DNA of 64,000 nt from Fistulifera solaris. Lineage: Eukaryota. A program made the translations under genes and the position numbers. The stretch spans positions 434,001 through 498,000 of the forward strand of contig AP026173.1 in assembly GCA_030295235.1 (NCBI GenBank), read 5' to 3'. The notes under the pieces are model-generated. The model worked only from the letters and a program-made list of their open reading frames with translations, was not told where the DNA came from and made no database searches. This document shows positions 3,611 to 38,295 of this stretch, piece after piece (positions within the stretch are counted from its first letter, which is position 1; every line of letters begins with the position of its first letter).

Positions 3611-4252
3611 ATGAAGTTCTCTGCTGCTTTCGTTGCTTTGATTGCCGGAGCTACGGCTTTCACTCCGGCTCAGCCAAGCTTTGCTCGCACTTCCGTCAAG
3701 GTATACAACCTTGAGAAAGGTGCCGGTAAGTCATCTCAACAAATGATGTGTTTAAATATTTCAAATTCTGAATGCAGTTGGATTCTCACGCAATTCGACA
3801 TTACAGGAGGTATGTTCGACACACGCAACCCCGACCCTGTGAAGCACGAAGATGCTCGCAAGTCGATCAGTGAGGCTCCGTCGTTCGAAGAGTACATGAA
3901 AATGCGAAGTGGCGGTGCCCCTGCTGCCCCTGCCCCCGCACCGGCGGCTTACACACCTCCCGCTGCTCCGGCCTGGGCTCCTCCGGCTGCCCCCGCTTGG
4001 GCTCCCCCGGCCGCTCCGGCCTGGGCTCCTCCGGCCGCCCCCGCTTGGGCACCTCCCGCTCAAGCGCCCGCCCCGTGGTCGCCACCGGCCGCCGCCCCGG
4101 CTCCTGCTGCCCATGGCGGTGCCCCAGTCAAGGGTGCCGGTGGTATGTTCGATACCCGTGATCCGGAACCAGTCAAGCACGAGGACCCTCGCAAGTCGAT
4201 CAGCGCCGCTCCTTCCTTCGAAGAGTACATGAAGATGCGTAACAACCAGTAA
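3611..4252 (+). CDS. Plastid-targeted Pro/Ala/Trp repeat protein with a duplicated ~37-aa terminal motif; function unknown
   Basis: Signal peptide MKFSAAFVALIAGATA|FTP (ASAF-type). Intron 3726-3806. Two copies of KGAGGMFDTR(N/D)P(D/E)PVKHED(A/P)RKSIS(E/A)APSFEEYMKMR flank a PPAAPAWA repeat tract. Confidence 0.85.
   Translation: MKFSAAFVALIAGATAFTPAQPSFARTSVKVYNLEKGAGKSSQQMMCLNISNSECSWILTQFDITGGMFDTRNPDPVKHEDARKSISEAPSFEEYMKMRSGGAPAAPAPAPAAYTPPAAPAWAPPAAPAWAPPAAPAWAPPAAPAWAPPAQAPAPWSPPAAAPAPAAHGGAPVKGAGGMFDTRDPEPVKHEDPRKSISAAPSFEEYMKMRNNQ
3950..4110 (+). repeat. Coding tandem repeat, 24-bp unit encoding (W/Y)APPAAPA, about 6 units
   Basis: YTPPAAPA-WAPPAAPA-WAPPAAPA-WAPPAAPA-WAPPAQAPAP-WSPPAAAPAP, with synonymous variation between units. 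Confidence 0.9.
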
Positions 4253-21243: not shown

Positions 21244-22311
21244 ATGTCGACAAATCGCATTTCGGTTTACAGTCAATACACCCGCAGCAGCTCAAGTTCC
21301 AGCACCAGCGAGAACTTGCCTCCGCGAACTCTGGCTCGTTTATCGCGAGAAGTCCGTAGTTTGCAGAAATCTCCGCCCGAAGGTGTTCGGCTTGTTGTAG
21401 ATGAAGAGACTGGTTTGCCCACGAACCTGGGAGAGCTCATGGTACGTCGTTCTCCGACTGCAAAGAGAGGTTGCTTTCGCTGCAATTGAATTCGCTGAAA
21501 TGGAAGGTGACCTTCAGTCCCAACGTGTTTGAGTGTCTTCATTAGTGTACCGTCACACTGTTTCCGTTGAAACGCTCTTGTACACAATTCTCTATACCGA
21601 CTTGTTCACGGAAGTCCTGATGTTGTTTTATGTTATTATGGCTAAGAACTTTTGTGTACAAGTTTGCAGCTAAATAACCGTATTGCCGCCGGGGGGTGTC
21701 GTTTCGGAAAATCACGTCTCACTCTAAGCTTGTTGTCGCTGCTATTTAGGCTGAAATGCAAGGCCCCCAAGGGACTCCTTATGAGGGCAAATATTTTCTG
21801 CTGAAGCTTGTGTTTGGTTCGGAATTTCCTGCAGTTCCGCCACGAGGATTTTTTTCTTACCAAGATTTTTCACCCGAATGTCGATCTGTCTACGGGGGCT
21901 ATTTGCGTCAACACACTCAAGAAAGATTGGACATCGGAGACGAAACTTAGTCACGTTTTGGCTGTGATTCGCTGTTTATTGATCGTCCCGTTCCCGGAAT
22001 CAAGTTTGAATGACGAGGCAGGGAAACTATTTATGGAGTCGTACGATGAATATGCGAAGCGAGCTCGTTTACTTGCCGATGTCCACGGACGATCCTCATC
22101 AATGACAAAAGAAGGAGCTGATCCCGCTGACGATGTCACTTTGTCAAAAAGTATAGCAGACGAACGAGGGGTGTTGCAGTCTTCTTCCGATAGTAGCCGC
22201 AACAACAGTCAAAAACCGGCTAGCTCGCCCGATTCTCCTTCAAAGAAACTTGCTGCAGGAGCTGTTGGTGCAAAGAAAGTTAACAAGAAGAAAAGCCTCA
22301 AGCGATTGTAG
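21244..22311 (+). CDS. UBE2S: Ubiquitin-conjugating enzyme E2 S
   Basis: ENLPP, GP.GTPYEG, PPRGFFLTKIFHPNV...GAICVNTLKKDW, CLLIVPFPESSLNDEAGKL and the UBE2S-type C-terminus KKKSLKRL. Intron 21442-21749, frameshift at about 21852. Confidence 0.92.
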
Positions 22312-23111
22312 CAGGCTTGTGTAAACAACGCTCGACGATGACCAGCAGCGATTTCATGCAGCATCTTTTCATCGGCTTTCGAAATATTAACGATGCGCCC
22401 TAGCATTAAATAGCTGAGACTTTAAAAACAGCTAATGTTATTACAATTCTTATTTAGAATTATTATCACATTTTTTATTAAAATGTTTCGGTAACAGACA
22501 CATTCTTATATCACAGCCTATAAGAGCCCACTAAATGGTACTACCCATTACGTTTGATTCTGTCGTAATTTGTAATTAGCATGTCAAAACTTCTTCTTGT
22601 GATCTCTGCGAGTCTACTTCTTCTTGTCACTCTTGTCATCTTTACCTTTTGCCAGCCTCTTCGAGTTAGCTAATAGGAAGAGAACGAGCCTGGTGCTCGG
22701 TGCTCGAACGACACGTACTGCCGACATGGTAGTACAAGGTGTTTCACCAAATCTTTCGAAGGGAACGTTCAATACCGCAAGGAAACCGCTCCGAGCTTCA
22801 TTAACTAATTTGACGTATACACGCCAGACGGTGTCCGTACATTTTTTAAGATCAGAAAAATCCGATGGACGTCGAGCAGAGAAGCCTCGATCGACGGCAA
22901 CATTTTGCAGTCGAAGAAAAGACGCGTTGTCATCATTGTTGCATACCTTGTCAAGGCAACGAAAGAAAACGCCGCTCTTTTCGAGAAAAATAAATTTTCT
23001 TTTGCAGGACCCTTTATCAGCAATATACAGGCCTGCTAGCACGAGAGGAGTCGCGCAATCTCAGTGAAAGTTCATTGTTTCGTGCAAGGTATTAATTCTC
23101 TACTCGAGAAA

Positions 23112-26100
23112 ATGTCGGCATTGCCGAAGAAAATACCGCGAAAGCTGTTTAGCTACGACGACGTCGAACCTACGCCTGCGACAGAGCCCCCGCGACCGAC
23201 GTCCGAAGCCGCTCAGAATTATATTCCCAACTCGTATCAAAATTCCAAGTTGTCGCATGCCAGCATCCAAGCCATCCGAGACAAAAGCACTCTCTCGCCG
23301 GAATTGCGAAGCCAGATCGACTATCAGCAGAGTGACGGATTGTATCCGGCTTCGTTCCCTCACTATGTTCGAGGCCGTGACAGTTTGCGCAAACACATCA
23401 CTCAACTCTTCACCAGCCGAATCGCCATCTATGACGGTGCGATGGGGACGATGATTCAAAATTATGCCAAGAAGAACAAGCTGGAAGAGGACGAGTACCG
23501 CGGAGACCGCTTCAAGGATTGGAAGTGCAACGTGAAAGGCAACAATGATATGTTGAGCATCACTCAGCCGCACATCATTCAGGGAATCTACCGCCAGTAC
23601 CTCGAAGAGGGAGGATCTGACTTGATTGGCACCAACACGTTTTCGTCAACGACCATCGCCATGGCCGACTACGAGATGGAGGCGTACGCGTACGAACTGA
23701 ACTACTGGGGTGCCCGCTTGGCCCGCGAGGTTTGTGACGAAGTAACGGCCAGAGACCCCACCAAGCCGCGTTTCGTTGTGGGTGCGATTGGTCCAACGAA
23801 CCGCACCGGTTCGATTTCTCCTTCTGTGGAAGACCCGTCCGCCCGGAACGTGACATTCGACGAGTTGGTGGAGACGTATTTCGAGCAGGTGGTTGGATTG
23901 ATGGATGGTGGTGCCGATATATTGATGGTAGAGACCATCTTCGACACGTTGAATGCCAAGGCGGCTTTGTATGCGATTGGGGAGTATTTGGAGTTTAGCG
24001 GCTTGGATATTCCTGTGTTTGTGTCTGGTACTCTCGTTGATCAGTCGGGCCGCACGCTTTCGGGTCAGACCGGCGAGGCGTTCTACGCCTCGATCCGCCA
24101 CGCGAAGCCGATGTGCGTCGGATTGAACTGCGCCCTTGGTGCCCAACACATGACCCCGTTTGTGGAACGATTGGCCGGTTGCGTCGAGTGCTTTATGCAT
24201 GTTTGTAAGTATATGGAACTGGAAATAATGCAGGTGTATACGCTGCCCTGCTTTGCTTACCCTTTTGACACCTTGTCGTTTCAGACTCGAACGCCGGTCT
24301 CCCGAATGCAATGGGCGGGTACGACGACTCTCCGGAAACGATGGCGGAACAGAATCGGTTGTTTTTTGAGAACGGTTGGCTCAATATGGTGGGCGGTTGT
24401 TGTGGGTCTACTCCCCCTCATATCAAGGCTATTCGTGAGGTCTCGGAGGGCTACAAGCCGCGAAAGCTTCCGGATGTCGGCCGTCCCAAAATGTGGCTAT
24501 CGGGCCTTGAGGATATGAAGGTAGAGGACGTGCACAACCACCTCGGTCTTCCGTTCTTGAATGTTGGCGAGCGCTGCAACATTGCGGGCTCGATCAAGTT
24601 CAAGAAGTTGATGATGGCGGGAGACTACGGTGCAGCGATGGACATTGCCAAGCAGCAGGTCGAGGACGGAGCGCACGTGATTGACATTAACGTTGACGAC
24701 GGCATGCTTGATGGTCTGGCAGCTATGCAAAAGTTTGTCAAGATAGCTGTGACAGAGCCGGAGGTAGCGAAAGTACCGTTCATGTTGGATGCCTCGAAGT
24801 TCGAGATTGTGTTGGCCGGCTTGAAGTGGTGCCAGGGCAAGCCCATCGTGAACTCTATTTCGCTGAAGGTCGGCGAAGAGATGTTTATTGAGCACGCGAC
24901 GCTGCTGAAGAAACACGGTGCGGCTGTTGTTGTGATGGCGTTCGACGAGGAAGGTCAGGCAGCGACAGAATCGGAGAAGGTCCGCATTTGCAAGCGTTCT
25001 TACGATATCTTGGTGAACAAGGTTAAGTTCCCACCTGAGGACATCATCTTCGATCCGAATGTGTTGACGATCGGTACGGGCATGGAAGAGCACGCGAACT
25101 ACGGTGTGGACTTCATTAATGCCTGCAAGACAATTAAGGAAGAGTGTCCGTACGTTAAGATTAGCGGTGGTATCTCGAATCTGTCGTTCGGCTTCCGTGG
25201 TGTGACGAAGATTCGCGAGTCGATTCATGCCGTGTTTCTGCACCACGCCATTTTGGAGTCCGGTATGGATGTCGGTATCGTCAACGCAAAAGAAATGCTT
25301 GCTATTGACGAGCTGGAACCTGATATGCTTGATTTATGCGAGAATCTAGTTTTCAATAAGACTGAGACCGCTACAGATGACATGTTGGAACGTACCGCTT
25401 TCGAACGAGCCGTTATTGATGCCCATAAGAAAGGATTGCCTCCTCCCCGAAAGCCTCGTGGCAAGATTGTGAACAAACCTAGAATGATGTTCAACTATGA
25501 CAATGTGGAACCTTCGCCTGCGACAGAGCCCCCGCGACCGACGTCCGACGCCGCTCAGAACTATATTCCCAACTCGTATCAAAATTCCAAGTTGTCGCAT
25601 GCCAGCATCCAAGCCATTCGAGACAAAAGCACGCTCTCGCCGGAATTGCGAAGCCAGATCGACTATCAGCAGAGTGACGGATTGTATCCGGCTTCGTTCC
25701 CTCACTATGTGAGAGGTCGCGATAGTTTGCGCAAACACATCACTCAACTCTTCACCAGCCGAATCGCCATCTATGACGGTGCGATGGGAACGATGATCCA
25801 AAATTATGCCAAGAAGAACAAGCTGGAAGAGGACGAGTACCGCGGAGACCGCTTCAAGGATTGGAAGTGCAACGTGAAAGGCAACAATGATATGTTGAGC
25901 ATCACTCAGCCGCACATCATTCAGGGAATCTACCGCCAGTACCTCGAAGAGGGAGGATCTGACTTGATTGGCACCAACACGTTCTCGTCAACGACCATCG
26001 CCATGGCCGACTACGAGATGGAGGCGTACGCGTACGAACTGAACTACTGGGGTGCCCGCTTGGCCCGCGAGGTTTGTGACGAAGTGACGGCCAGAGACCC

Positions 26101-29100
26101 CACCAAGCCGCGTTTCGTTGTGGGTGCGATTGGTCCAACGAACCGCACCGGTTCGATTTCTCCTTCTGTGGAAGACCCGTCCGCCCGGAACGTTACATTC
26201 GACGAGTTGGTGGAGACGTATTTCGAGCAGGTGGTTGGATTGATGGATGGTGGTGCCGATATATTGATGGTAGAGACCATCTTCGACACGTTGAATGCCA
26301 AGGCGGCTTTGTATGCGATTGGGGAGTATTTGGAGTTTAGCGGCTTGGATATTCCTGTGTTTGTGTCTGGTACTCTCGTTGATCAGTCGGGCCGCACGCT
26401 TTCGGGTCAGACCGGCGAGGCGTTCTACGCCTCGATCCGCCACGCGAAGCCTATGTGCGTGGGCTTGAACTGCGCCCTTGGTGCCCAACACATGACCCCG
26501 TTTGTGGAACGATTGGCTGGTTGCGTCGAGTGCTTTATGCATGTTTGTAAGTATATGGAACTGGAAATAATGCAGGTGTATACGCTGCCCTGCTTTGCTT
26601 ACCCTTTTTGACACCTTGTCGTTTCAGACTCGAACGCCGGTCTCCCGAATGCAATGGGCGGGTACGACGACTCTCCGGAAACGATGGCGGAACAGAATCG
26701 GTTGTTTTTTGAGAACGGTTGGCTCAATATGGTGGGCGGTTGTTGTGGGTCTACTCCCCCTCATATCAAGGCTATTCGTGAGGTCTCGGAGGGCTACAAG
26801 CCGCGAAAGCTTCCGGATGTCGGCCGTCCCAAAATGTGGCTATCGGGCCTTGAGGATATGAAGGTAGAGGACGTGCACAACCACCTCGGTCTTCCGTTCT
26901 TGAATGTTGGCGAGCGCTGCAACATTGCGGGCTCGATCAAGTTCAAGAAGTTGATGATGGCGGGAGACTACGGTGCAGCGATGGACATTGCCAAGCAGCA
27001 GGTCGAGGACGGAGCGCACGTGATTGACATTAACGTTGACGACGGCATGCTTGATGGTCTGGCAGCTATGCAAAAGTTTGTCAAGATAGCTGTGACAGAG
27101 CCGGAGGTAGCGAAAGTACCGTTCATGTTGGATGCCTCGAAGTTCGAGATTGTGTTGGCCGGCTTGAAGTGGTGCCAGGGCAAGCCCATCGTGAACTCTA
27201 TTTCGCTGAAGGTCGGCGAAGAGATGTTTATTGAGCACGCGACGCTGCTGAAGAAACACGGTGCGGCTGTTGTTGTGATGGCGTTCGACGAGGAAGGTCA
27301 GGCAGCGACAGAATCGGAGAAGGTCCGCATTTGCAAGCGTTCTTACGATATCTTGGTGAACAAGGTTAAGTTCCCACCTGAGGACATCATCTTCGATCCG
27401 AATGTGTTGACGATCGGTACGGGCATGGAAGAGCACGCGAACTACGGTGTGGACTTCATTAATGCCTGCAAAACAATTAAGGAAGAGTGTCCATACGTCA
27501 AGATTAGCGGTGGTATCTCGAATCTGTCATTCGGCTTCCGTGGTGTGACGAAGATTCGCGAGTCGATTCATGCCGTGTTTCTGCACCACGCCATTTTGGA
27601 GTCCGGTATGGATGTCGGTATCGTCAACGCGAAGGAGATGCTAATGATCGAAGAAGTCGAGCCCGAACTCTTGACGGCTTCTGAGAATTTAGTTTTCAAT
27701 AAGTCCGAGGATGCAACCGAAGTTATGCTCGAGCTTACTCGAAAAGAAAAGGAAAGACTTGAAGCTTACAAAGCCGGAGGGGGTGTTGCAATGAAAAATG
27801 AAGCATCATGGCGTGATCAAGATGCTGTGAAGAGGCTCGAGCACGCCCTTATTAATGGAATTTCCGAGTTCGTCGATCAGGATGTTGAAGAAGCTCGTCA
27901 GAAGTGCGCTAAACCCCTTGATGTCATTGAAGGACCGCTCATGGACGGAATGAATGTTGTCGGTGACCTCTTTGGAGCCGGGAAAATGTTTTTACCACAA
28001 GTTATTAAGTCAGCTCGTGTTATGAAGAAGGCCGTGGCATACCTGTTACCGTTTATGGATGAAGAAAAAGGCAAAACCTGATTGCCCAGGGACTCAATCC
28101 TGATGACTTCGACCAGAACGATGATTCAAATTACGCCGGAAAAGTGCTGATGGCAACGGTGAAAGGCGATGTCCATGATATCGGCAAGAATATTGTCGCA
28201 GTTGTTCTCGGCTGTAATAATTTCAAAGTTTACGATATTGGCGTGATGTGTTCATGTGAAATGATTCTTGAAAAGGCAAAGGAATACAACGTGGATGTGA
28301 TTGGATTGTCAGGCTTGATTACTCCTTCCTTGGACGAAATGGTCGTTGTAGCTAAAGAGCTTTCCAAGGGCGGTTTCAAGCAACCTCTGCTGATTGGTGG
28401 TGCCACGACATCTAAAATGCACACTGCTGTAAAGATTGCTCCTAATTATTCCTCCGCAGAACATCCAGTGATCCATGTGCTGGATGCCTCTCGCTCTGTA
28501 ACGGTGGTGTCGTCACTTCTTGGTAACGCCAAAGAAGACTACGTGGCTGACATACACGAAGAGTACGAGGAAATGCGCGAAGATTACTATGCTGGTCTTG
28601 AGGACAGATATTTCTTAACTTTTGAGCAAGCAAAGCAACAGAAATTCAAAATCGATTTCGAGAAATCACCCCTGCTCCACAACCTAAGCAAATCGGTACA
28701 ACGTTGATAGACAAAGTGAAGCTATCAGACGTCGTTCCGTACATCGATTGGGTAAGCAGAACCGAACGATCGATTTAGGGCTTGTTTGTTCATCGCATCG
28801 TATCTCACTGTTTTACGCTATATTCAACAACAGAATCCTTTCTTCCAAACTTGGGAATTGCGTGGACGATATCCAAACCGTGGATATCCAAAGATTTTTA
28901 ACGATGAAGCTGTAGGCAAAGAAGCAAAGAAGCTTTTTGACGATGCTCAATCAATGATGAAGGAAATCATCGCAGATGGAAGCATGTGGTTGACTGGTGT
29001 TGTTGGGCTCTTCCCTGCAAATCGCTCGGACGATGGTGAAGATGTCGAAGTTTACGAAAATGAAGCAGACAGAGAGGCAGGAACACCCAAAGCGAAATTC

Positions 29101-29700
29101 TGCATGTTGCGGCAGCAAGCTGAGAAAGAATCGGACGACCCGTTCTTTTCTCAAGCTGACTTTGTAGCTCCAAGAGGAATGAAAGATCACCTGGGAATGT
29201 TTGCCGTTTCCTGTCTAGGCTGCGACGCTCTCGTTGACAAGTATGAAAAGATCAACGACGATTATTCCAAGATCATGGCCCAGGCCCTGGCTGACCGCTT
29301 TGTAGAAGCCTTTGCTGAGTATCTTCACCGAGAGATCCGTGTCAACATGTGGGGCTACGCACCGGACGAAAAGTTGAATGAGGCCGATTTGTTGAAGATC
29401 AAGTACGATGGAATTCGTCCGGCCCCTGGATATCCCTCCCAGCCGGATCACACAGAGAAAACCACTATGTGGGAGCTTATCAAAGCTAAGGAACTTGCAG
29501 GGATCGAGCTTTCCGAATCTTTGAGCATGATGCCGGCTAGTTCGGTTTCAGCTCTGGTATTCGCTCATCCCCAAGCGGAATACTTTGCCGTCGGCCAGGT
29601 GGGCAAAGACCAAGTCGTAAGTTACGCGGAACGCAAGAACATGAAGCTGGAAGTCTGTGAGCGATGGCTGTCTCCCATCTTGAACTATGAGCGAGACTGA
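23112..29700 (+). CDS. METH: Cobalamin-dependent methionine synthase with duplicated homocysteine- and folate-binding domains (about 2,100 aa)
   Basis: [13 protein letters not shown] and GGCCG (Zn ligands), VGERCN, DINVD, NSISLK and SGGISNLSF each occur twice. A single cap (LIEGPLM-type VIEGPLM, KMFLPQV), DVHDIG B12 motif and RPAPGYP activation domain follow. Introns 24205-24284, 26547-26627 and 28752-28833. Frameshifts at about 28070 and 28670. Confidence 0.96.
23173..25287 (+). repeat. METH internal direct repeat, copy 1 (about 2.1 kb)
   Basis: Near-identical to 25515-27630 (offset 2342-2343), including the intron. Confidence 0.95.
25515..27630 (+). repeat. METH internal direct repeat, copy 2 (about 2.1 kb)
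   Basis: By eye, about 22 substitutions versus copy 1, all but one (E/D) synonymous, plus one T-run indel in the intron. Confidence 0.95.
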
Positions 29701-29809
29701 GGATGAAACAATCAAAAATAATTAAATAAAAAAAAGAAAATAGCTATAATATCCTATATGTGTCGTAGGTCTCGCCCCGTCATTCAGTTGGAATGGACTG
29801 CCCGTCGAA

Positions 29810-35606: not shown

Positions 35607-38295
35607 ATGATCCGGTCCAACATTGCTCTAGCAGTATTTCTGTTACTCTCCGGATGTAGTGATGCCTTGACAATTCCGGGAGGACGATCCGTGCGATCTT
35701 CATTCGTTCGTCAATCGGTTATGTTAGCGGCGGAACCGAAAAAAACGAAATCGATATCGCCGCGGTGCAGAAAGAAGCCGATGATGCTCTCAAGGCTGCG
35801 GAAGCCGCCCTGTCGAAAGGAAATAATGACAAGCCTCCAACACCCCCCACGCCCCCACGGCCCGTACAATTAGACCCCAAAGTCGTCGCCGCGACGAAAG
35901 CCTTTCAAAAAGCCGCAGCCGAATTTCAAGTCGAAGCCGTCGCGGCCGCCGTCGGTGCCGCGGCCGTGGGTGGAACCCTCGGTTTGACGTTGTTGGTGCA
36001 ATATCCTTCCATTACGGCCTCTGTCGATCCTCTGTACCGCCCTTGGCGGGGGCAACCTTGTTAGCGGGATCCGCCTTGGCCGTCGGCTTGCAAGATTCGC
36101 AACCGGGCCGGATTGTGCGCAATGTGCTCGGCAAACCAACCAAGGCCATTGGCACCGGTATTGCAAAATCCATCAAAAATTCGATCGATCGAACCGTAGA
36201 TCGTGTTGTTTCGTTCCCGGGATACGTCGCGGAGGAAACAAAGAAGAAGGTGACGACGACGGTCCAAGAAATCGAGTCGGATATTAAAGCATTTCCGAAA
36301 AAAGTCTCGGAAGCGGCTCTCGATGCTGCCGAAGACTTGAAGGAAGAGATCATTGCCACTCCGGGACGCATTGTGGAAGGAACGAAAGAAAGTGTACGTA
36401 AAACGGTGGAAGGAACCAAACAGGCAGTGCAACAGAAAACTAAGGAAACACAGGAGAAGATTGTGAAAAGTGTGGAGGAAGTGGTGGCCATTCCTACCAA
36501 AACAGTCGAAAGCATTGCTTCATTACTAGAAGGAGGTGAAAAGCGTGATCCGGAAGTCCCGAAACCGCCGAAATTACCACCACCGGAAGAGGCCATTCGG
36601 CAGGGAAGCAATCAAGTGCAACTTCCACGCTTGGCCGTACCCAAGCTGAGTACTTCTCCTGCTCCGCCCAAAGTTCAGCCGCCTGCTCCGAAAGCGGCGC
36701 CCAAACTGGATGCGCCCAAGATCGAGATCCCCAAAGTAGAAATACCAAAGATTGAGATTCCCAAGGTGGAAATCCCCAAAGTAGAAATTCCCAAAGTCGA
36801 AGTACCCCGTGTCGACCTTCCCAAACTGGATCTTCCCAAAGTGAAAGCACCGGAGGAAACAAAACCAGTTGCTAAGAAACCAGCCAAGAAAAAAGAAATC
36901 TGTTAACGAAGGAGCACAAGTCACGGCTTCGGTCAAAGCCCTCATGGCAGAATTGTCTGCTGAGAAGGTTACACCTGCCGTTGCGAAAACAGACAATACC
37001 GTAGCAGAACGTCGTCGTGCGGAAGAACAGGCTGAAAAGGCAAGATTAGAGCAAAAACAAAAGCAAGAACAGTTAAATGCCCAGAAAGCTGCCGAACGTG
37101 CCAAGGCTGCGGAGCAGCAACGTCAGCAGCAAGAAGAACGCAAGAGACAGCAAGAAGCTCAACAAGCTGAAAAGGCCCGACTTGCCATGGAGCAGAAACA
37201 GAGGCAAGAACAGGCCATCGCTCAAAAAGCAGCAGAACGAGCCAAAGCATTGGAACTCCAGCGCCAAAAACAGGAAGAGCGCAGAAGACAGCAAGAAGCA
37301 AAGCAAGCAGAGACGGAAGCTAAGCGTGCTGCTCAGCAGGCTCGTCAAGAGGAGCAGAATCGCAAGGCGGAACAGCAGCGCGCCGAGCAAGCTGAGAAAC
37401 GACGAGCTGCAGCGGAAGCGGCTCGTCTAGAGGCTGAGCGTCGACAGCAAGAACAAGCACGTCTTCGTGAAGAAAAACTAAAAGCTAGTCAGCAAAGGAA
37501 AAGCCACAAGCAGTCGCGACTGCACCGCGGCCCAGTTTCTTGCTTGGTACTTCTAGTCAAAGAGCATCTGCCGCAGCACCCCGTGGAGTGCCAACTATTG
37601 CATACTGGCGGAAACGCGCCGACAACGGTATCTCAGGAAAGATCTACGGATCGCCCAATTTTAAGGACGGGGAACGCGTGGAAACATCCGCAATCACGTT
37701 TGGGCAAATAGAGAACGGATATGTGGTTAAGACGAGCAGCGGTTCTCGTTACTTCCTCAGCAGCACCCCACCTGCACCTGGCAAAGCTGAAAAGGCTCTT
37801 GAATCCGCAAAGCCTGGGGCTACCATAAACTTGAGTAATATATTTAGCGGCAGTGCAAATGATGCCCAGGCACAGAAGGCAAAGCCACGGTCCACTCAAG
37901 CTAGCCCACAGCCCAGTACGACATTCTCTCTGTTTGGAAGCAGTGGAACAGTAACCGTAACGCCGCCGAAGAAAGAATCCGTTTCCAAATCAGTTAGTGT
38001 GAAAGCCGACAGTCCACCCCGTGCCACGTTTTCTTTGTTTGGGCTTGGTCAGGCAGATCCAGAAAGTGCACCTACGGTAAGTAAAGTTACGAAAAGCAAA
38101 CCCCGCGCCCCGCGCGGCGTGCCGACCCTAAAAAATTGGAGAAAAAATGGAGACAAATCCGTCACGGGGAACATCTCGGGTTCACCCAATTTTAAAGAAA
38201 ATGAAAAAGTGACAACAAGCCCTATTGTCAAGGGCAACATCGCTGCAGGAGAAGTTGTGACCACAGGAAGCGGATCGCGCTACTTTCTGAACTAG
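35607..38295 (+). CDS. Large plastid-targeted protein (about 900 aa): membrane hairpin, PKxEI repeats, coiled coil and two C-terminal PyShell-like beta domains
   Basis: Five consecutive ORFs join through single-base slips (about 35745, 36033, 36895, 37497). Signal MIRSNIALAVFLLLSGCSDA|L plus an Arg/Ser-rich transit region. Two copies of PRGVPT...W....D..(I/V).G.I.GSPNFK..E.V.TS.I..G.I..G.VV.T.SGSRYFL. Confidence 0.75.
36706..36845 (+). repeat. Coding pentapeptide repeat PK(I/V/L)(E/D)(I/V/L), about 9 units
   Basis: PKLDA-PKIEI-PKVEI-PKIEI-PKVEI-PKVEI-PKVEV-PRVDL-PKLDL-PKV. Confidence 0.85.

Follow-up and report, generated by a model that had tools for sequence, protein, structure and literature searches.

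What would a cobalamin-dependent methionine synthase do with two pairs of substrate barrels and a single cobalamin domain? The question is raised by a gene, METH, at 23112-29700 on the + strand of the stretch of Fistulifera solaris contig AP026173.1 that we analysed (64,000 nucleotides (nt), called the window here, in whose positions all coordinates are given). Here, we propose that the evidence as a whole is best explained, with a probability of roughly 0.55, by an intact and transcribed METH whose N-terminal module was duplicated in frame, so that two heads share one cobalamin. The duplicated module consists of an N-terminal extension (N-extension), a zinc homocysteine (Hcy) barrel and a methyltetrahydrofolate barrel. 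The layout itself is already present in public annotations and has been noted once in print, and the F. solaris gene is one conserved example of it.

Two heads ahead of one cobalamin domain

The gene has four exons and three short GT..AG introns (Table 1). Its spliced reading, with an X at each of two frameshift slips, is 2,115 amino acids (aa) long without an internal stop, or about 235 kDa. Pfam finds S-methyl_trans plus Pterin_bind twice, followed by B12-binding_2, B12-binding and Met_synt_B12 once each. In residues, the map runs N-extension 10-101, Hcy barrel 102-425 and folate barrel 451-705, then N-extension 764-855, Hcy barrel 856-1179 and folate barrel 1205-1459, with the B12 cap from 1515 onward, and it is identical to the METH maps of Nitzschia and Epithemia. 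The original prediction, made from the letters alone, had been of extension, Hcy and folate units twice over, then cap, B12 and S-adenosylmethionine (AdoMet) domains, all in one frame of about 2,100 aa, and this is what the Pfam map and the 2,115-aa reading bear out.

Both Hcy barrels (PF02574) keep their zinc cysteines, as had also been claimed (GLNC at aa 337 and 1091; GGCCG at aa 401 and 1155), and both pterin-binding barrels (PF00809) match the full profile, 1-244 in each case (E-values 1.4e-50 and 4.5e-51). The B12 cap (PF02607) and the B12-binding Rossmann domain (PF02310) give one match each, with DxHxxG at aa 1633, and the AdoMet-binding activation domain (PF02965; E 1.3e-104) carries RPAPGYP at aa 2022. 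The N-extension matched no Pfam family. A second DxHxxG match, in the linker between the heads (IDAHKKG, aa 743), was rejected as chance, K replacing H in other species. Judged by these domains and motifs, the gene is a cobalamin-dependent methionine synthase with a reading frame that is intact once the two slips are corrected.

The slips lie in an A-run (28065-28069) and a C-run (28669-28672), each one base short in the window. All four read runs insert an A behind 28064 and a C behind 28668, and hence the slips are undercalls of the window, not mutations. The prediction was right that the two slips are there and that fixing them restores the reading; their cause is now apparent from the runs. 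Other single-base homopolymer errors occur at 22841, where the runs insert T, and at 22991, where they insert A, and the length at 29728 varies among runs. Frameshifts in this assembly are often of this homopolymer kind, and other frameshifted genes in it are suspect as artefacts.

How does the protein compare with the textbook enzyme? Canonical MetH/MTR (E. coli, human; EC 2.1.1.13) shares all five Pfam domains and their order with F. solaris METH, along with the zinc cysteines, DxHxxG and the activation motif. It has, however, one Hcy and one folate barrel per cobalamin in about 1,160-1,290 aa (the length range of the single-head representatives in our protein search; E. coli MetH has 1,227 aa and human MTR 1,265 aa), whereas F. 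solaris METH has two of each in 2,115 aa. F. solaris METH is further distinguished by the roughly 100-aa N-extension before each Hcy barrel.

The product of exon 2, which takes in the last part of head 1's Hcy barrel and the first part of head 2's, was modelled with AlphaFold2 using 24 homologues (mean predicted local distance difference test (pLDDT) 76.7; predicted template-modelling score (pTM) 0.76), and the model is read here for its single domains and linker. The N-extension is modelled confidently (block pLDDT 64-93), and the modelled folate barrel superposes on the solved MetH folate domain 3k13_A (template-modelling (TM) score 0.94, root-mean-square deviation 1.9 Å) and also on 9ssp (51% identity). 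In the linker, a helix at exon-2-product residues 362-381 is followed by residues 387-401 with pLDDT below 50, and the heads are predicted to be joined by this helix and a proline- and base-rich flexible tether of roughly 20 residues. Among 25 aligned stramenopile sequences K381 and F402 are invariant, and P387, K389 and P390 are conserved in at least 90%. The linker (the helix, then KKGLPxPxKPR) is conserved in stramenopiles and is distinct from the linker between folate barrel and cap (Fol-to-Cap linker). The uniqueness claimed for it thus holds within the window and not beyond, its core being shared with other stramenopile METH.

Could this tether be where a polyprotein is cut after translation, releasing a free Hcy-folate module and an ordinary METH? 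Its conserved basic residues (KK...RKPR), predicted to be exposed and flexible, would suit such a site. We nevertheless regard cleavage as very improbable: no known cleavage motif was found, none having been specifically tested for, the linker is wholly different in green algae and dinoflagellates with the same layout, and the free head would have no cobalamin of its own. A Met-Met pair stands before the head-2 N-extension (25463-25489), aligned with the head-1 start region (23112-23156; PRKLFSYDD). Internal initiation at this pair, at the end of the linker, appears unlikely because the Met is not conserved in Nitzschia, Epithemia and others.

The two heads are encoded by a direct tandem repeat with a period of 2342/2343, duplicated in frame, and a stop-free frame of 780 codons (24269..26611) spans copy 1 and the junction and runs into copy 2. 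By blastn, the copies are 98.38% identical over 2,161 aligned columns, with 34 mismatches and one gap. The identity is 100% over 24263-25128 (866 bases), 95-99% on the flanks, and 57-66% and lower at both edges; in particular, 24285-25128 and 26628-27471 (about 840 nt) are identical. The linker's two ends trace back to the Fol-to-Cap linker and the protein N-terminus, from whose sequences they have diverged.

One might ask whether the assembler simply wrote a single head twice, an artefact with which the homopolymer errors of the window and the identity of the central 866 bases would be compatible. Against this stand the 34 substitutions and one indel between the copies, the divergence of both edges, and a junction that is unique in the window, bridged by contigs of run X3 (25270-25591) and run X4 (25337-25611), covered by depth in the junction bins of X1 and of the wetland metagenome run X2, and found again in orthologues. 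An artefact of assembly is thus excluded as far as present data go. With 35 differences between the copies, diverged edges, a unique and bridged junction and the same junction in other species, the duplication is real and aged, not one read written twice, as the prediction had maintained. The order of folate barrel, linker, N-extension and Hcy barrel is also found in one chain in Aureococcus anophagefferens P0001 and in the protein fragment P0137.

Contigs of X3 and X4 are spliced at GT..AG joints, and these runs are therefore RNA-derived. The METH gene is transcribed and its mRNA carries the junction: transcripts including 25290-25510 had been named as the telling observation, and the X3 and X4 contigs bridge the junction there. 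What these contigs show is the junction stretch itself, 25270-25591 in X3 and 25337-25611 in X4. Contig depths at the linker (X3 247, X4 78) are similar to those of the unique 3' contigs (X3 174-354, X4 95-133), but such depths are unsuited to ranking parts of the gene, and no inference is drawn from the several depth bins that have no contigs (for example 23511-23984 in X1 and X3).

The differences between the copies are distributed as constraint would predict. In protein, heads 1 and 2 are 99.8% identical. Of the 35 codons that differ in the repeat core, 29 encode the same amino acid, and the six replacements are confined to the first 32 codons; over codons 33-703, which encode the rest of the N-extension and both barrels, every difference is synonymous (25/25). 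All three zinc cysteines and the invariant folate-barrel residues are kept in both heads. From this codon pattern, both heads are judged to be under purifying selection.

Runs X1, X3 and X4 also hold a second version of METH, whose variant positions are listed over 23160-26089; 33 of its 40 listed differences from the window are synonymous. Two X1 contigs cover 28715-29126, and their letters differ from the window at 0 and 34 places, respectively. This version may be an allele that has diverged, or another copy of the gene in the genome.

Relatives and the history of the heads

How widespread is the layout? We searched with the exon-2 product, a query that only a multi-head protein can cover in full, against targets of 1,319-3,765 aa. 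The search returned 1,605 proteins at E <=1e-30, and the best 120 of these 1,605 were mapped with the window's own domains, giving 87 two-head, 20 three-head, 2 four-head and 10 one-head proteins and 1 fragmentary one (Aureococcus). The 10 one-head models are taken to be truncated multi-heads because they begin inside the upstream folate tail or the linker. Among these best 120, multi-head METH occurs in diatoms, labyrinthulids, pelagophytes, green algae and dinoflagellates. Two heads are found in Nitzschia inconspicua (2,113 aa), Epithemia clementina (2,119), Hondaea fermentalgiana (2,120) and Mucochytrium quahogii (2,102), three in Chrysophaeum taylorii, Chlamydomonas reinhardtii (CHLRE_06g250902v5), Volvox carteri, Chlorella sorokiniana, Dunaliella, Botryococcus, Polarella glacialis and Prorocentrum, and four in Haematococcus lacustris (P0187, 3,657 aa) and Bryopsis (P0192, 3,361 aa). 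The METH of Nitzschia, Epithemia, Hondaea and Mucochytrium are orthologues of the window gene, with the same module order and spacing and a homologous inter-head linker; residues 1-2115 of the window protein align with residues 1-2113 of the N. inconspicua protein at 82.4% identity end to end. METH of green algae and dinoflagellates follows the same principle, with tandem heads that are nearly identical within a species before one tail, but has three or four heads, no stramenopile-type N-extension, and linkers unrelated to the stramenopile ones.

There is also a separate two-head family, P0013 (2,076 aa, from a eukaryote transcriptome), P0051 (1,982 aa) and P0095 (2,014 aa), 33-37% identical to the query. 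These proteins have an uncharacterised N-terminus of about 450-500 aa, then Hcy-folate-Hcy-folate and a C-terminal KR (ketoreductase), with no cap, B12 or activation domain. By its domain content, the family is a two-head methyltransferase without a cobalamin module of its own.

In print, the layout has been described for another pennate diatom, Phaeodactylum tricornutum. In a few sentences, the METH model Phatr2 23399 is said to contain a 2,280-base 'intron' that encodes in-frame MetH and pterin-binding domains and is covered by expressed sequence tags, which was called a 'doubling of the domain' 'to be verified experimentally' (Bromke and Hesse 2015, PMC4523565). As described there, and compared by description only, it has the same two-head layout as F. 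solaris METH. The P. tricornutum protein on deposit (P0297) has a single head and 1,245 aa, its model beginning partway through the Hcy barrel. Thus the architecture that the prediction put forward stands, and it had precedents, being annotated in Nitzschia, Epithemia and Hondaea and remarked on for Phaeodactylum in the relevant part of PMC4523565. Beyond that paper, we found no duplicated METH heads in the full-text literature searched (which held few subscription journals, supplements being outside its scope), and no functional study of a two-head METH in the same literature. The passages of PMC11439496, PMC11197592, PMC10861871, PMC11244166, PMC10828217 and PMC12803021 hold nothing on duplicated METH heads. 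The MetE-fusion protein of Phaeocystis, in the passage of PMC10861871 that treats it, belongs to a different family and was set aside.

Is the head duplication one old event or many recent ones? Identity among the heads of a single protein runs from 85 to 100%, and mostly from 97 to 100%, against 88-89% between the window's heads and those of Nitzschia. A FastTree tree of 79 heads groups each protein's heads into a clade of their own in 28 of 29 proteins; the exception is Mucochytrium, with 92.1% identity between its heads. It is usually the first head that has diverged furthest in green algae (85-87% versus 94-99.5% among later heads in Botryococcus and Chlamydomonas eustigma).

The linkers follow another pattern. 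Over the 30 residues after the folate barrel, the inter-head linker of the window matches those of Mucochytrium (23/30), Epithemia (20/30) and Hondaea (19/30), against only 5-9/30 for any Fol-to-Cap linker, its own included, and it shares a 12-residue stretch with Nitzschia. Among stramenopiles, and likewise among green algae, an inter-head linker resembles its counterparts at the same position; the green algae share a different linker (LDPKSxPT...DPLAPD..LPPVPxYKAW) and the dinoflagellates a third. With the linker conserved by position while heads and intron are homogenised, we favour gene conversion acting on an old duplication over many recent duplications. The heads would be kept alike by conversion, intron included, while the junctions escape it and evolve by position, and the duplication would predate the split of diatoms, pelagophytes and labyrinthulids.

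Conversion of this kind raises the question of whether the extra heads do anything useful. Heads might multiply by unequal crossing-over, be kept alike by conversion and even work, with no gain per B12 and with loss simply not favoured. Head numbers from 2 to 4 among lineages are what such a process would produce, and the homogenisation of introns along with exons indicates that the likeness arises at the level of DNA. Yet both heads are under purifying selection, and all 71 heads from 29 multi-head proteins keep the three cysteines and five folate-barrel columns that are also invariant in 8 single-head proteins; the five folate-barrel columns are presumably pterin contacts. Stramenopiles and green algae each conserve their linkers position by position, and the layout is retained across very distant lineages, where a neutral and costly 750-2,200 aa would be expected to decay or vanish. 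A duplication that is merely tolerated is thus, in our estimation, quite unlikely.

MetE, the cobalamin-independent enzyme, makes an instructive comparison: it too was enlarged by an internal barrel duplication, in a family unrelated to METH. Pejchal and Ludwig are said to have concluded in 2005 that its double barrel arose by intragenic duplication. The duplicated barrel of MetE lost its catalytic site; by contrast, every head of the multi-head METH keeps all catalytic columns (71/71).

A proposed sharing of one cobalamin by two heads

If two functional heads do share one cobalamin, how might the enzyme work? In MetH, the B12 domain has to move in succession to the folate barrel, the Hcy barrel and the activation domain, and large domain motions were reportedly described by Evans et al. 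in 2004. Each F. solaris polypeptide would offer two homocysteine and two methyl-folate sites for one cobalamin. The cap-B12 domain could dock on either head, with one head swapping products for substrates while the other is in use, and the outcome would be more methionine per bound B12 in organisms that scavenge B12. Output per cobalamin would rise only if substrate exchange at the barrels limits the cycle. B12 co-limits phytoplankton growth. The hosts, aquatic algae and labyrinthulids, would fit a B12-sparing role. That one cobalamin module might move from one set of barrels to the other, as was suggested from the start with scarce B12 in mind, is plausible.

Several points weigh against the reading of two heads serving one cobalamin. 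That a single cobalamin domain uses both heads is something that we infer purely from the sequence. If turnover were limited by chemistry or by cap movement, extra heads would bring no gain in rate. Protein, activity or structural data for a multi-head METH were not found in the literature searched, and the head counts from short-read assemblies and transcriptomes may be wrong. Two observations, finally, concern the message itself. One X4 contig (depth 237) joins 24204 to 26628 across a GT..AG pair, skipping 2,423 nt; this joint would delete exon 2 exactly and leave a normal enzyme of 1,361 aa. In addition, a second search, with the activation domain as query and proteins of 505-2,000 aa as targets, gave 33 new models of at least 1,100 aa among the matches listed, and 17 of these 33 are diatom-type, single-head models of 1,359-1,367 aa with a proper N-terminus, including Skeletonema potamos, Mediolabrus comicus, Nitzschia sp. 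Nitz4 and two MMETSP transcripts called complete. Subtracting the 754 codons of exon 2 from 2,115 leaves precisely 1,361 aa.

Is exon 2, then, a cassette exon, skipped in much or most of the mRNA, with a single-head METH of 1,361 aa as the working enzyme and the double-head form minor or regulated? Besides the depth-237 joint and the 17 short models with their two complete-called transcripts, it speaks for skipping that exon 2 is exactly one repeat unit (2,262 nt, 754 codons), so that its loss keeps the frame, and that the Phatr2 model of P. tricornutum treats the equivalent stretch as an intron of 2,280 bases, as the passage of PMC4523565 reports. The placement of the 24204>26628 joint is, however, ambiguous because the sequence after 24285 is the same as that after 26628, for about 840 nt, and the contig also fits an ordinary junction of exons 1 and 2, or of exons 2 and 3. 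The linker is present in RNA-derived contigs. Twenty-five synonymous differences out of 25 in the catalytic part, and a linker conserved in distant lineages, would be unexpected of an exon that is normally spliced out.

Short-read assemblers collapse tandem repeats that are 99% identical, and 10 + 7 of the listed models begin in the upstream folate tail or linker or carry linker remnants: the 10 one-head proteins above and, in the second search, 7 of the 33 listed models, Cyclotella atomus, Corethron hystrix and a Proboscia transcript included. A further 7 of the 33 start within the Hcy barrel, the deposited 1,245-aa model of P. tricornutum among them, and 2 of the 33 come from other lineages. 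In P0260 (Corethron) and P0353 (the Proboscia transcript), the linker or a partial second N-extension jumps into the end of the folate barrel or into the cap; judged from these sequences, such jumps are the signature of a collapsed tandem repeat. The 1,359-1,367-aa models could be true single-head genes, exon-skipped mRNAs or short-read-collapsed repeats. On balance, we consider regular skipping of exon 2 unlikely, though of the alternatives it is the one to which we give most weight and a single-head isoform may occur, and we retain the reading of two heads sharing one cobalamin.

We would extend this reading to the class as a whole only tentatively. Multi-head METH, with two to four heads, may be an old, conversion-homogenised B12-sparing device, in which loaded heads queue for one cofactor and the number of heads is tunable by unequal crossing-over. 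If the reading is true, a textbook modular enzyme has an uncharacterised catalytic mode, and models of algal B12 demand have a new variable. Should extra heads raise methionine per B12, head number would be a trait that shapes B12 quotas and competition. MetH is the textbook example of a single cofactor domain that swings among fixed substrate modules, and nature's versions with two, three or four such modules for each cobalamin offer ready-made experiments on what limits its turnover. The repeat is often lost, by collapse or skipping, from gene models, transcriptomes and short-read assemblies, and METH lengths and copy numbers in algal surveys are unreliable for that reason. The breadth of the multi-head class, its concerted evolution and its possible effect on B12 economy make it worth experiment.

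Feature coordinates and neighbouring sequence

Coordinates of the METH gene, its motifs and its repeat are collected in Table 1. Intron 2 is placed there by its identity with intron 1: the joint 26546>26628 is not among the spliced joints of the read contigs, and intron 2 is unspliced in one X1 contig (26512-26887).

Table 1. Features of METH in the window (aa positions refer to the product of the exon named)
Feature	Position	Strand	Content and basis
Repeat core copy 1	23140..25299	+	blastn
Repeat core copy 2	25482..27642	+	blastn
Exon 1	23112..24204	+	Start codon, head-1 N-extension (about 100 aa), most of Hcy barrel 1; open reading frame, translation
Exon 1 domain match	aa 106-357		S-methyl_trans, E 1.4e-62; Pfam
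Zinc-ligand Cys of GLNC, head 1	24129-24131	+	In exon 1
Intron 1	24205..24284	+	80 nt, GT..AG, within Hcy barrel 1; joint 24204>24285 in one contig each of X3 and X4
Exon 2	24285..26546	+	2,262 nt, exactly 754 codons, stop-free frame; end of Hcy barrel 1, folate barrel 1, inter-head linker, head-2 N-extension, most of Hcy barrel 2
Exon 2 Cys, head 1	24398-24403	+	GGCC
Exon 2 Cys, head 2	26471-26473	+	
Exon-2 product, Pterin_bind	aa 94-333		Pfam
Exon-2 product, S-methyl_trans	aa 495-746		Pfam
Inter-head linker	25370..25489	+	Helix, then proline- and base-rich stretch predicted flexible; translation
Non-repeated DNA at linker	25300-25481	+	
Intron 2	26547..26627	+	81 nt; duplicate of intron 1 plus one T; placed by identity with intron 1
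Exon 3	26628..28751	+	End of Hcy barrel 2, folate barrel 2, B12 cap, B12-binding domain; Pfam
Exon 3 GGCC Cys	26741-26746	+	
Exon 3 DVHDIG	28168-28185	+	
Intron 3	28752..28833	+	82 nt, GT..AG; joint 28750>28833 (cut +1) in X3 and X4
Exon 4	28834..29700	+	AdoMet-dependent activation domain, stop codon; Met_synt_B12, E 1.3e-104
RPAPGYP motif	29416-29436	+	In exon 4

Outside METH, no tRNA genes were found in the window. Upstream of the gene, an open frame at 21805-22311 (+) matches ubiquitin-conjugating enzyme (PF00179, E 4.9e-18) over profile positions 66-137 only, and it is probably, from this partial match, one exon of an E2 gene. Two short tandem repeats lie elsewhere in the window, a GC-rich one at 3954-4060 with a period of 24/48 and one at 36718-36806 with a period of 30 and three copies.

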